Counted from the stretch's first letter, positions 1-38,623 are shown. The stretch is 64,000 nt of DNA from an uncultured bacterium (GCA_963801165.1 CAWDDT010000005.1:448001-512000); one strand, 5' to 3'. Numbers and translations: made by a program. The notes: generated by a model not told the origin, from the sequence alone.

Positions 1-459
1 CCACACCGCCCCCCACAGACCATCGGGATACTTGCCCCGATCGTCCACGTCGACCAGAAACACAGGGATGGGGACGCGGCCATCGTCGTCGTAGTCGCTC
101 CCCGAACGAACCGAGACGATGTCCTCCCAGGGGATATCCATCATCGAGAGCGGGCCGGCAACCCTGAGTCGGATCGACTCATCGGTCAGCTCGACCATGG
201 GTCGCGCCGCCACCAGGCCCCCGAGACCGACCACGATGAGCGAGGCTCCCACCGCGGTGAAAAGCGATCCCCAGGCAATGTCGGTGCGGCGCTCGGTCTG
301 CCCCTTAGAGGTGAGAACACCGTCTGCGTTTGTCGTCGGCGGATCGGAGAGGCGGTGCAAGCTCACGATGTCCAAAGCGGCAACCAGAAGCAGGATGCCG
401 GCCGCAGCCATGAGCAACTGGCGAGTCGCCGACCGTTTGGAAGCAAACACCGTCGTCAC
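1..459 (-). CDS. Hypothetical membrane protein (2 TM segments plus a possible PH-like domain); runs off the window edge
   Basis: Open frame read manually from GTG at 459, which overlaps the pyrE stop (GTGA): VTTVFASKRSATRQLLMAAAGILLLVAALDIV...RPMVELTDESIRLRVAGPLSMMDIPWEDI; no stop before position 1. Confidence 0.7.
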   Translation of the reverse strand, partial: MTTVFASKRSATRQLLMAAAGILLLVAALDIVSLHRLSDPPTTNADGVLTSKGQTERRTDIAWGSLFTAVGASLIVVGLGGLVAARPMVELTDESIRLRVAGPLSMMDIPWEDIVSVRSGSDYDDDGRVPIPVFLVDVDDRGKYPDGLWGAVW

Positions 460-1004
460 GCGGTCACCCCCAGATCCTCGGGCAGCAGCAAAGCCACCAG
501 CGGTACTCCCAGGCTCGCCAGCAGATCCCGGGCGGCACCATCGCTGCGATCGACGAGGACAATCGCCTGGATGACGTCGACGCCCTCGGCTCGCAGCGCC
601 TCGATCGCCGCTGCCATCGATGCACCCGTCGTAACCGCATCCTCAACGACCACGGCGCGATCGCCCGCAAAGATCGGCCCGACGAGCCGGCCGCCGGTGC
701 CGTGCTCCTTCGCCTCCTTGCGCACGCTGAAGGCCCGCAGCGGTCGGTCCGCCAGGACCGCCGTGGCAACCGCAATCGGATCTGCCCCCATGGTCATACC
801 TCCGACAACGTCTACCGAGTCGTCGAGGACCTCGAGGACACATGCGGCGACGATGCGGGCTCCGGCGCCGTCGAAAGTGGTCTGCCGTCCGTCGACGTAC
901 CAGCCGGACTCCAGGCCGGAGCTCAACCGGTAGGGGCCTTCTGTGTACAGCCCGTTGGCCTGGAGATGAGCTACTAGTTCGTTTTGGTTCTCCGTGAGAT
1001 TCAT
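456..1004 (-). CDS. pyrE: Orotate phosphoribosyltransferase
   Basis: LSSGLESGWYVDGR, VRKEAKEHG and PRPP-binding VVEDAVTTGAS motifs; ATG at 1004 chosen as start. Confidence 0.93.
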   Translation of the reverse strand: MNLTENQNELVAHLQANGLYTEGPYRLSSGLESGWYVDGRQTTFDGAGARIVAACVLEVLDDSVDVVGGMTMGADPIAVATAVLADRPLRAFSVRKEAKEHGTGGRLVGPIFAGDRAVVVEDAVTTGASMAAAIEALRAEGVDVIQAIVLVDRSDGAARDLLASLGVPLVALLLPEDLGVTA

Positions 1005-1019
1005 CAAGGAAAAAACCCC

Positions 1020-1047
1020 TAAAGGATTTGGCAACGCGGACCGATAT
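1020..1047 (+). promoter_or_regulatory. Sigma28/WhiG-like promoter P1 (TAAA-N16-ACCGATAT)
   Basis: Resembles the FliA/WhiG consensus TAAA-N15/16-GCCGATAA; the same geometry recurs at 1171, 34577 and 38623. Confidence 0.6.
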
Positions 1048-1053
1048 GGTACT

Positions 1054-1123
1054 CAGACTGGATGCCTTCCTACCTCCCGTCTAAAGCCCAGAAAGAGACC
1101 GCCGCCAGGCGGTCTCTTTCTTT
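1054..1123 (+). ncRNA. Candidate small RNA 1 (5' hairpin with C/U-rich loop plus intrinsic terminator)
   Basis: AGAC-T-GGA[TGCCTTCCTACC]TCC-C-GTCT hairpin followed by GAAAGAGACCGCC-GCCA-GGCGGTCTCTTTC-TTT; begins about 7 nt after promoter P1. Confidence 0.6.
1091..1123 (+). terminator. Intrinsic terminator hairpin (possibly bidirectional)
   Basis: Perfect 13-bp stem, 4-nt loop, T-rich tail. Confidence 0.8.
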
Positions 1124-1170
1124 GTGCACTCTGTCTCCGGAGAATCCCGAGAAAATATCTCAGAAATTCC

Positions 1171-1198
1171 TCAAGGTTCTCATTATCGGGACCGACAT
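1171..1198 (+). promoter_or_regulatory. Sigma28/WhiG-like promoter P2 (TCAA-N16-ACCGACAT)
   Basis: Same spacing and -10 core (ACCGA) as P1. Confidence 0.6.
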
Positions 1199-1205
1199 AT
1201 TCGCT

Positions 1206-1270
1206 CGGGAAGACTCCTTCTCCTTCCGTACTCGCACCGGAGGCCGCCGTCAGGCGGCCTCTAGTGTTTT
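1206..1270 (+). ncRNA. Candidate small RNA 2, paralog of sRNA 1
   Basis: GGAAG[ACTCCTTCTC]CTTCC hairpin followed by GAGGCCGCC-GTCA-GGCGGCCTC-TAGTGTTTT; begins about 7 nt after promoter P2. Confidence 0.6.
1235..1270 (+). terminator. Intrinsic terminator hairpin
   Basis: 9-bp perfect GC-rich stem at 1240-1261, extended by CAC/GTG and followed by TTTT. Confidence 0.7.
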
Positions 1271-37446: not shown

Positions 37447-38535
37447 TCAGGCTGTGCGCAAGCCCGACTTTTGGGCCGCCATCCTGAAATCTGAGGGATG
37501 AGAGGCATTGTTGAGTGCCTCTTCGAAGGTGATCGTGCCTTCGCGGAACATGGCGAGCAGACTCTGGTCGAACGTCTTCATCCCGTAGTAGGCCCCCTCC
37601 GCCATGACTTCCTCGAGACGACCGGTCCGATCCGGGTCCATGACATAGTCGAACGTGCGATCAGTGTGCGTCAGTACCTCGAACGCAGGTATCCGTCCCG
37701 ACCCGTCTGCCGCGGCGACCAGACGCTGACTCAGGATCATCTTGAGGTTGCGACCGAGCCGCAGCCTCATCTGGTGGTGACGGTGGGGCTCGAAGACCTC
37801 GACCAATCGAGTGACGGTCTCAGTCGCATCGTTGGTGTACATGGCGGCTAGGACCAGATGCCCGGTCTCGGCGGCATAGAAGGCTGCCTCGATCGTCTCG
37901 GCGTCCTGCAGCTCGCTGACCATGATCACGTTGGGATCCTGGCGCAGGATCCGCCTCAGCCCGTCGGGGAAGTTGGCGGCATCGACACCGATCTCACGCT
38001 GGCTGACGATGGCCATCTTGTCCCGATGAACTGTCTCGATGGGATCTTCCAGGGTGACGATGCTGACCCGTCGCGACGAGTTGATCTCATCGACCATTGC
38101 GTTCAGGCTCGTCGTCTTGCCGGAACCGGATGAGCCGGTGACCAGCACGAGACCGCGTTCCTGTTTACAGACCCGCCCCACAGGTTCGGGGAGACCGAGT
38201 TCGACAAACCCCTTGCTTCCCGACACAACGGCCCGCACCACGAGGGCAATGGAGCCGCGCTGCCTGTAGATGTTCATCCGGAACCGACCCAGACTGGCCG
38301 AACCGTGGCCGAAGTCGACCTCGCCGTCACGAGCGAAAGTCTCCCGCGCCTTGTCGTCCATCAGGGCCTGCGACCACTCCTCGGTATCCTCGGTCTTGAT
38401 CTTGGGCAGCTCGGAGAAATGGAGGTGCCCATCGATCCGATATGCCGGCGGCGATCCGACCTTCAGGTGCAGATCGGAGGCCCCGATCTCGGCGAGTTTC
38501 CCGAGAAGGGCGTCAAGTGTCGGCAATCGATCCAT
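37447..38535 (-). CDS. pilT: PilT/PilU family type IV pilus ATPase with divergent motifs
   Basis: ASDLHL, RFRMNIYRQRG, GSGKTTS, TLEDPIE, QREIG, AETGHLV and GMKTFDQSL motifs. Confidence 0.85.
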   Translation of the reverse strand: MDRLPTLDALLGKLAEIGASDLHLKVGSPPAYRIDGHLHFSELPKIKTEDTEEWSQALMDDKARETFARDGEVDFGHGSASLGRFRMNIYRQRGSIALVVRAVVSGSKGFVELGLPEPVGRVCKQERGLVLVTGSSGSGKTTSLNAMVDEINSSRRVSIVTLEDPIETVHRDKMAIVSQREIGVDAANFPDGLRRILRQDPNVIMVSELQDAETIEAAFYAAETGHLVLAAMYTNDATETVTRLVEVFEPHRHHQMRLRLGRNLKMILSQRLVAAADGSGRIPAFEVLTHTDRTFDYVMDPDRTGRLEEVMAEGAYYGMKTFDQSLLAMFREGTITFEEALNNASHPSDFRMAAQKSGLRTA

Positions 38536-38595: not shown

Positions 38596-38623
38596 CTATC
38601 GGTCGGACCGGGCGGGCACTTGA
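38596..38623 (-). promoter_or_regulatory. Sigma28/WhiG-like promoter P4 upstream of pilT (TCAA-N16-ACCGATAG)
   Basis: Minus strand reads TTCAAGTGCCCGCCCGGTCCGACCGATAG. Confidence 0.6.

Follow-up and report, generated by a model that had tools for sequence, protein, structure and literature searches.

The window analysed here is a 64,000-nucleotide (nt) stretch of DNA from an uncultured bacterium (GCA_963801165.1 CAWDDT010000005.1:448001-512000; G000:C5:448001-512000 in our numbering, where G000 is the whole genome of 4.55 Mb), and our subject is the 280-nt gap in it between pyrE, the orotate phosphoribosyltransferase gene, and a gene for an adhesin-like surface protein. This gap holds two modules, m1 and m2, of identical part list, and it is very probable that both are real, undescribed small RNA (sRNA) genes with WhiG-type promoters. 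The best explanation overall, to which we give a probability of about 0.55, is that m1 and m2 are two WhiG-driven, intrinsically terminated sRNA genes whose products pair with ribosome binding sites (RBSs), with possible interference with pyrE.

Under this explanation, two independent genes on the + strand would each give an RNA of about 65-70 nt, running from a WhiG promoter to an intrinsic terminator. The sigma factor would be the near-ubiquitous WhiG-type protein (G000:C10:160075-160749) and not its flagellar paralog, and the RNAs would be made when WhiG is free, alongside Flp pilins, PilT, a class E sortase and an HD-GYP-type protein. In other Actinomycetota, the release of WhiG is governed by cyclic di-GMP (c-di-GMP) through RsiG. 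The invariant C/U-rich segment (GCCUUCCUACCUCCCGU in m1, CUCCUUCUCCUUCC in m2) would then pair with purine-rich RBSs and lower translation without Hfq. As the upstream region of pyrE is taken up by the m1 promoter, WhiG-directed transcription of m1 may also interfere with pyrE expression.

Promoters, terminators and conservation of the two modules

The promoter-like boxes that a preliminary description of this sequence placed at 1020 and 1171 are present exactly there, and both pairs fit the WhiG/sigma-28 promoter class, with exact spacing and with A for G at the first base of the -10 box. The sigma-WhiG site is quoted as T(A/C)AA-N16-GCCGA in PMC2602773, and bioRxiv 10.64898/2026.01.14.699351 gives the consensus T(A/C)AA-N16-GCCGATAA for WhiG2 and CTCA-N16-17-GCCGAACT for WhiG1. 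The pair of boxes is kept as a phylogenetic footprint, which bears out the earlier assignment to sigma-28/WhiG-type promoters: T[AC]AA-N15-16-NNCGA stands 20-27 nt before the CCUCCCGU core in 42 of 43 homologs, while the spacer sequence varies, and once the -35 box is relaxed to T[AC]A[AG] the pair is found in 83/83. In the 4.55-Mb genome the strict box TAAA-N15-17-CCGATA occurs 10 times, as against 0-3 times for five composition-matched controls.

The RNAs themselves are predicted to fold tightly, at -33.3 kcal/mol for m1 (z = -7.1 vs shuffles) and -34.1 kcal/mol for m2 (z = -5.7). Each contains one hairpin besides its terminator. The 5' hairpins with C/U-rich loops of the preliminary description are present in both modules, with the qualification that the stem-loop proposed for m2 is only one of two possible folds: a GGAAG/CUUCC stem with the loop ACUCCUUCUC competes with the minimum-free-energy fold, which pairs 1207-1222. 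The terminator stems with T-rich tails are also found in both modules at the positions given. The two terminators share 87% identity over their 23-nt hairpin cores, and a terminator scan called both + strand hairpins terminator-like (2 found vs a mean of 0.7 in shuffles). Indeed, both 3' modules combine what defines an intrinsic terminator, a G+C-rich covarying stem and, in the window, a U-rich tail. A small peptide, encoded by a 12-codon open reading frame (ORF) from the ATG at 1046, was ruled out, as the ATG is lost in homologs and the linker carries indels.

Both modules are far better conserved than the adjacent pyrE coding sequence. m1 is present in 14/14 genomes of the same genus, and in genera of the same family its RNA is 82-92% identical while the pyrE DNA is 65-83% identical. 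A covariance model built from 19 sequences (R1), run on 150 other sampled genomes of the order, matched in families f1 (17/19), f8 (6/8) and f11 (6/14), the sole match in f3 being to the terminator only. (The tallies for relatives and for the order, including those for m2, WhiG, CsrA and flagellin below, include two genomes flagged as unpublished, G027 and G038, both without the RNA and not used for any other result.) A model of 100 sequences (R3), run on a class-wide sample of 150 other genomes, matched in f1 (5/5), f11 (1/1), f9 (2/7) and f3 (1/15), while none of the 31 families that this sample lists from other orders gave a match. The range of m1 is therefore five families (f1, f8, f11, f9 and f3) of one Acidimicrobiia order. 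Among 185,579 species genomes the exact core pattern occurs in 82 stretches, all from metagenome-assembled genomes or bins; of the 80 titles listed, 54 read Acidimicrobiia, -ales or -aceae, 17 give the Actinomycetota level only, 6 are unspecific and 3 carry other labels, and one oddly labelled match (L162) scores the same as the locus of the same-genus genome G007. These titles agree with the host having been placed in the Acidimicrobiia. Neither BLAST nor the two models found another copy in G000, where the extra model matches, for example at C6:441202, are plain terminators.

The alignment of 83 distinct m1 homologs shows where the constraint lies. A C/U-rich core of about 35 nt, AGACAGGAUGCCUUCCUA(A)CCUCCCGUCU-AAGCCCGA, is almost invariant in f1, and families f8, f11, f9 and f3 retain CCUCCCGU.U.AGCCC together with a 5' strand that pairs with CCUCCC(G). 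The terminator stem is free to vary in sequence yet stays paired: 12 of its 13 pairs have changed on both sides and 97.3% of cells are paired, values that 0/500 shuffles reach. Compensatory change in the terminator, first noted between the two window copies, is seen in the alignments of both m1 and m2. These patterns bear on a simpler reading, in which the gap holds no RNA genes but just a pair of bidirectional terminators, used by the convergent adhesin gene and by genes nearby, next to chance promoter-like words. The hairpins are near-palindromic, the adhesin gene converges on m2 with its stop codon about 20 nt from the m2 terminator, and the best partial matches in Rfam are to terminator ends of unrelated sRNAs, all of which this reading would accommodate. 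We regard it as extremely improbable, since the best-conserved parts of m1 are the 5' core and the box pair, not the terminator; conservation of the terminator only, the refuting outcome set beforehand, is the opposite of what was seen.

The two modules are related to each other. Two m1 models recognise m2, with 30 bits (E = 0.0036) and 35.9 bits (E = 1.5e-4), and 14 nt from the start of pyrE (996-1009), upstream of the m1 -35 box, recur with 86% identity at 1163-1176, upstream of the m2 -35 box. This agrees with their earlier description as paralogs, and the reading as two stand-alone non-coding genes on the + strand is supported as well. The repeated stretch suggests that m2 came from a tandem duplication in which the promoter region was copied too. 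m2 is thus probably a paralog born by tandem duplication, promoter included; m1 appears to be the ancestral, widespread member and m2 seems confined to the genus and a few related lineages. All 14 same-genus genomes have m2, with 88-95% identity over 1207-1269 and at 0.05-2 kb from m1, and four further loci (L055, which is G129, L112, L142 and L151) score 63-70 bits directly downstream of m1, L104 having a score identical to that of L055. Matches to the m2 model span 63-97 bits overall, and four weak matches of model R2 in other families (32-33 bits) were left out of the m2 counts. The m2 boxes (C/T)T(C/T)AAG and CCGA are kept in the genus and in four other species with a variable spacer sequence, the four loci outside the genus reading GCTCAAG-N16-(G/A)CCGAT and showing compensatory changes in the terminator. 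In the alignment of 18 m2 homologs, three terminator pairs have compensatory changes, and a G-U pair stands at one position in 15/18.

The genome also encodes a matching sigma factor. The WhiG-type protein named above (FliA_WhiG, TIGR02479, 264 bits vs a cut-off of 189.6) is encoded beside an xerC-like gene, and a second FliA_WhiG copy, which at 187.9 bits narrowly misses the cut-off, sits among flagellin genes in the flagellar cluster. WhiG-type boxes in G000 precede Flp pilin genes, an HD_5 gene, a class E sortase gene and a GT87 gene, and in the window pilT. Non-flagellar WhiG has been predicted to act on type IV pili and c-di-GMP metabolism (the 2021 WhiG paper; bioRxiv 10.64898/2026.01.14.699351). 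Flagellin was found in 10 of the 151 genomes of the order and CsrA in 12, and 15 of the 17 m1-positive f1 genomes have a match to neither. As m1 occurs mostly where no flagellin or CsrA was found, the regulon would be of WhiG type (pili, sortase, c-di-GMP genes) and not flagellar. A flagellar regulon was rejected on these counts; of the FliA/WhiG-like regulon first proposed, the WhiG-type boxes stand and the flagellar arm does not.

Some of the genes with such boxes deserve mention in their own right. At G000:C6:439800-441300 (the L044 region) there is a tandem array of four near-identical genes for 56-aa Flp/Fap pilins, every gene having its own terminator and three of them being preceded by TAAAGG or TCAAGG-N15-GCCGATAC boxes. 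The strict box stands before the HD_5 (HD-GYP-like) gene at C5:62359-62984, the class E sortase gene at C5:567259-568115 and the GT87 glycosyltransferase gene at C5:192670-194013; the sortase box is of interest because the gene beside m2 encodes an adhesin of the sortase-anchored type. In the window, the box TCAAG-N16-ACCGATAG at 38596-38623 (-) lies 60 nt upstream of a PilT/PilU ATPase gene at 37447-38535 (-) (TIGR01420, 385 bits vs a cut-off of 319), which fits WhiG control of type IV pili.

Table 1. Features of the pyrE-adhesin gap and its flanking genes, in window positions counted from the first letter
Feature	Position	Strand	Description
pyrE (orotate phosphoribosyltransferase)	456-1004	-	TIGR00336, 118.9 bits vs cut-off 106.8; PF00156
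m1 promoter	1020-1047	+	WhiG/sigma-28 type; -35 TAAA 1020-1023, 16-nt spacer, -10 ACCGATAT 1040-1047
m1 RNA, predicted ends	1054-1123	+	5' hairpin, linker AAAGCCC, terminator, U-rich tail
m1 5' hairpin	1055-1082	+	AGAC.GG/CC.GUCU, C/U-rich loop, CCUCCCG on 3' side
m1 terminator	arms 1090-1103/1108-1121	+	perfect 14-nt arms, U-rich tail
m2 promoter	1171-1198	+	-35 TCAA 1171-1174, 16-nt spacer, -10 ACCGACAT 1191-1198
m2 RNA, predicted ends	1206-1270	+	5' hairpin within 1207-1226, invariant CUCCUUCUCCUUCCGUACUC, terminator, U-rich tail
m2 terminator	1234-1267, arms 1235-1248/1253-1266	+	arms 86% complementary, U-rich tail
Adhesin-like surface protein gene, 2553 aa	1285-8946	-	12 SdrD B-like repeats; PF17210 SdrD_B, E = 6.6e-134; DUF11, SpaA

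The linkage of m1 to pyrE and the question of the strand

m1 and pyrE stand back to back, a linkage that the preliminary description overlooked and that opens a cis-acting alternative. In 78 of the 83 distinct homologs, m1 is divergent to pyrE and 38-100 nt from its start, so that the m1 promoter fills the pyrE upstream region. The five exceptions have no pyrE match (L141, L077 and the short contig L072), a distant weak match (L103) or a match on the same strand (L074), and two f9 homologs adjoin genes other than pyrE. At L074 (G090, f8) the RNA lies at 461-536 and the pyrE-like match follows downstream at 597-1121 on the same strand, its sister L075 having the usual divergent layout; two phosphoribosyltransferase genes may flank the RNA at L074. 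Moreover, a myo-inositol-1-phosphate synthase gene, ino1 (G000:C5:434263-435369; L201-L229), is found 2-15 kb from m1/pyrE in most genomes of the same family. This synteny of the whole neighbourhood tempers, without explaining, a linkage of m1 to pyrE on the 45-nt scale.

One cis-acting alternative is that the element belongs to the - strand, as a novel leader of pyrE, riboswitch- or attenuator-like, with a purine-rich hairpin GACGGGAGGUAGGAAGGCAUCCUGUC and with the boxes as part of the leader sequence. It would account for the position of m1 upstream of the pyrE start, on the opposite strand, which is kept across families. It would also suit the 5' domain, of which all distinct versions (36/36) have the more stable fold on the - strand (mean -13.6 vs -7.5 kcal/mol) and in which two + strand mismatches become G-U pairs, and it fits the contigs of an RNA library that cover the whole region, as a read-through transcript would. 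The - strand stability arises partly because a purine-rich complement tends to fold better anyway, in addition to the two G-U pairs. The terminators point to the other strand: the + strand is more stable in 67 of the 83 homologs and the - strand in 13, and wobble pairs favour the + strand by 68 vs 6. Read on the - strand, the order would be a terminator-shaped hairpin, the conserved core, about 45 nt of variable spacer and the gene, which is not that of an aptamer followed by an expression platform, while two boxes held at a constant distance around a variable sequence are the hallmark of a promoter. The f9 homologs do not adjoin pyrE, and m2, with the same anatomy, is cut off from pyrE by a + strand ORF for a 288-aa hydrolase-like protein between m1 and m2 in G007 and G013, so m2 is no part of a pyrE leader there. 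No Rfam leader matched at E up to 10, the PyrR site included. We therefore consider a pyrE leader unlikely.

Two observations stand beside this alternative. A PyrR site on the - strand was tried and rejected as a candidate: AUCCAGUCUGAG resembles the PyrR loop, yet RF00515 gave no match at E up to 10. The 288-aa protein (L018:1073-1939 +; L023:2028-2894 +) is membrane-anchored and alpha/beta-hydrolase-like, and its ORF has no counterpart in the window.

It could also be the act of transcription that matters, with WhiG-RNA polymerase shutting off pyrE at overlapping, face-to-face promoters and the short RNA arising as a by-product. The pyrE ATG is just 16 nt from the m1 -35 box, so there must be overlap between the promoter of pyrE and that of m1 or the m1 gene. 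In 66/83 homologs a - strand TANNNT (window 1046-1051), which may be the pyrE -10 element facing the WhiG box, covers part of the m1 -10 box at a constant offset. The retained linkage to pyrE points the same way. However, a + strand TANNNT is present at the neighbouring offset in 62/83 homologs, so that the hexamer may just be a side effect of one TA-NNN-TA pattern. In addition, a by-product would not hold about 35 nt near-invariant where the PyrE protein is only 50-60% identical, and the RNA is retained in m2 and in the f9 homologs, where pyrE is not adjacent. As the whole explanation, promoter interference seems quite unlikely to us; it is compatible with two WhiG-driven sRNA genes as an added layer.

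Mode of action and the points that weigh on it

That the two RNAs act by pairing at RBSs is a tentative part of our explanation, one that we would put slightly below an even chance. It is the simplest reading, by analogy with the 6C RNA and the cuckoo RNAs, and the C/U-rich unpaired bases and 3'-stem bases do resemble the anti-Shine-Dalgarno tail of 16S rRNA. The complementarity to mRNAs is of a generic GGAGG type only. Candidates from seed matching include three solute-binding proteins, ino1, YceG and acetyl-CoA synthetase, and a genome-wide RNAduplex scan was uninformative, its energies being dominated by G+C content.

A number of observations weigh against two + strand sRNA genes that act in this way. 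The tight linkage to pyrE is explained no worse by a cis role than by a trans role, and the - strand folds of the 5' domain with their two G-U pairs belong here too. The promoters deviate from the consensus, the -10 boxes of both m1 and m2 in the window beginning with A and not with the consensus G, and 14 of the 42 box pairs having (T/A)CGA (28 have CCGA). As WhiG is near-universal, with a WhiG-type sigma above cut-off in 128 of the 151 genomes of the order, its co-occurrence with the RNA proves nothing. The U-tails are poor in many m1 homologs (for example GGUUCGUCC), and the 5' hairpin is almost invariant, so that covariation gives it neither support nor refutation. RNA library X1, in which 8% of the sampled words occur, yielded two 151-nt contigs from a relative that span promoter and terminator; since they overrun both ends of the gene, they show neither start nor strand and say nothing about expression. 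Finally, no functional theme links the 20 best RBS-positioned seed matches in G000, some of which belong to fragments internal to ORFs, and ino1 was rejected as a target because its seed match, the best of all (11 nt), is not conserved in 28 other genomes.

The lack of a conserved mRNA target in the ino1 test invites a different view, namely that the RNAs bind a protein or the translation machinery, either as decoys of the 16S rRNA 3' end or as sponges for a C/U-binding protein. The m1 core CCUCCCGUCUAAG (1074-1086) agrees at 11 of 13 positions with CCUCCUUUCUAAG, which comprises the 3' end of the organism's own 16S and the beginning of the spacer (G000:C6:182822 region), GGAU standing upstream in both, and an invariance of about 35 nt exceeds what a short pairing seed needs. 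This likeness to 16S is a post hoc observation and is less marked in f11 and f9, and the one concrete protein, CsrA, fails, being found in 12/151 genomes as compared with m1 in 17/19 genomes of f1 and 6/14 of f11. We judge a decoy or sponge improbable. It is tempting to speculate further that m1 and m2 could be mimics of the 16S 3' tail, made when c-di-GMP frees WhiG and competing for strong Shine-Dalgarno sites, while the same sigma factor throttles pyrE. We hold this to be quite improbable; if true, RNA and promoter would together form one switch that is conserved throughout an uncultured order and retunes translation globally.

A CsrA sponge had been considered by itself, because ACAGGAUG in m1 resembles the CsrA binding consensus, and was rejected, as CsrA was found in few of the genomes that carry m1 (3/19 genomes of f1 and 0/14 of f11 have CsrA). 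As a separate observation, four flagellin genes of G000 (C11:418000-430000; C11:474967) share a 5' untranslated region with ACAUGGAUGU and UACAAGGAGGU, which again resemble the CsrA consensus, and the same C11 flagellin cluster contains genes for CsrA and for a second FliA-like sigma factor.

Relation to known RNAs and to the neighbouring genes

Neither module belongs to a recognised family, as had been supposed. When positions 800-1500 were scanned on both strands with Rfam 15, five matches had an E-value of up to 10 and none of them reached the gathering score, the best being ncS011 at 21.3 bits (gathering score 48) over the terminator only. We found no description of the m1 and m2 RNAs in the literature searched, and no regulatory RNA in it for this uncultured actinobacterial group.

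The closest parallels are thus to be sought in architecture. The 6C sRNA (RF01066) of Mycobacterium, Corynebacterium and Streptomyces (PMC6486639) is likewise a small stand-alone RNA of high-GC Gram-positive bacteria with a hairpin followed by a terminator, and for its C-rich unpaired segments chaperone-free pairing with several mRNAs has been proposed or demonstrated. In contrast, the motif of m1 and m2 is mixed C/U (CCUUCC, CCUCCC) and does not consist of C runs, they have one 5' hairpin where 6C has two C-loop hairpins, their promoter is of WhiG type, and the m1 gene is locked beside pyrE. The 6C model had no match in the region at E up to 10 and none in G000 at E up to 1, a search of limited sensitivity, as the control in Corynebacterium was matched only below the cut-off.

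The cuckoo RNAs of Alphaproteobacteria consist of 2-4 adjacent hairpins, each with CCUCCUCCC in its loop (PMC4615179). Similarly to m1 and m2, they carry an anti-Shine-Dalgarno-like motif on hairpin modules, with variable stems beside the conserved motif, and form several, often clustered paralogs in conserved intergenic neighbourhoods. However, they belong to another phylum, m1 and m2 have no Rfam match, and CCUCCUCCC, the mark of the cuckoo family, is absent from the m1 and m2 sequence. m1 has a single hairpin, with CCUCCC mostly on its 3' side, and in addition a conserved single-stranded linker AGCCCGA. Some cuckoo members are reported to be linked to Hfq, while no Hfq was found in G000.

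Dependence on a sigma factor of the sigma-28 family is known from E. coli, with FliX, MotR, UhpU and FlgO (PMC10578931), and from the FliA-dependent sRNAs of Campylobacter jejuni (PMC11187230). In these cases, as the promoter boxes suggest for m1 and m2, the sRNAs form a post-transcriptional arm of the regulon. The E. coli sRNAs are reported to derive from untranslated regions, and both papers deal with flagella, unlike m1 and m2, which are stand-alone and would belong to the non-flagellar WhiG type. Within the actinobacteria, scr1906 of Streptomyces coelicolor requires whiG for its expression, with no WhiG-type site found upstream and an indirect effect proposed by the authors (PMC2602773). 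It shares with m1 and m2 the tie to whiG, which for our RNAs is suggested by the promoter boxes; unlike in scr1906, WhiG-type boxes are the best-conserved feature of m1. The sequences are unrelated, and no match of our RNAs was found outside the order.

scr1906 is the only whiG-dependent actinobacterial sRNA that we met in the literature consulted on WhiG, and its dependence is judged indirect in PMC2602773; the words sRNA and small RNA are absent from the main text of the 2021 and 2026 WhiG papers. Thus, if the explanation preferred here is true, an sRNA under direct WhiG control would extend the output of the c-di-GMP/RsiG/WhiG switch to the post-transcriptional level, and two RNA families would be added for a large, widespread and uncultured group of actinobacteria. 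The interlocked promoters of m1 and pyrE would in turn represent a compact arrangement conserved across families. The alignments and models A3, A5 and R3 can be used as Rfam seeds.

As for the gene on the other side of m2, a search upstream of the adhesin gene found no WhiG-type box. In G013, the ORF convergent to m2 ends in a terminal sorting signal of the LPVTG type.

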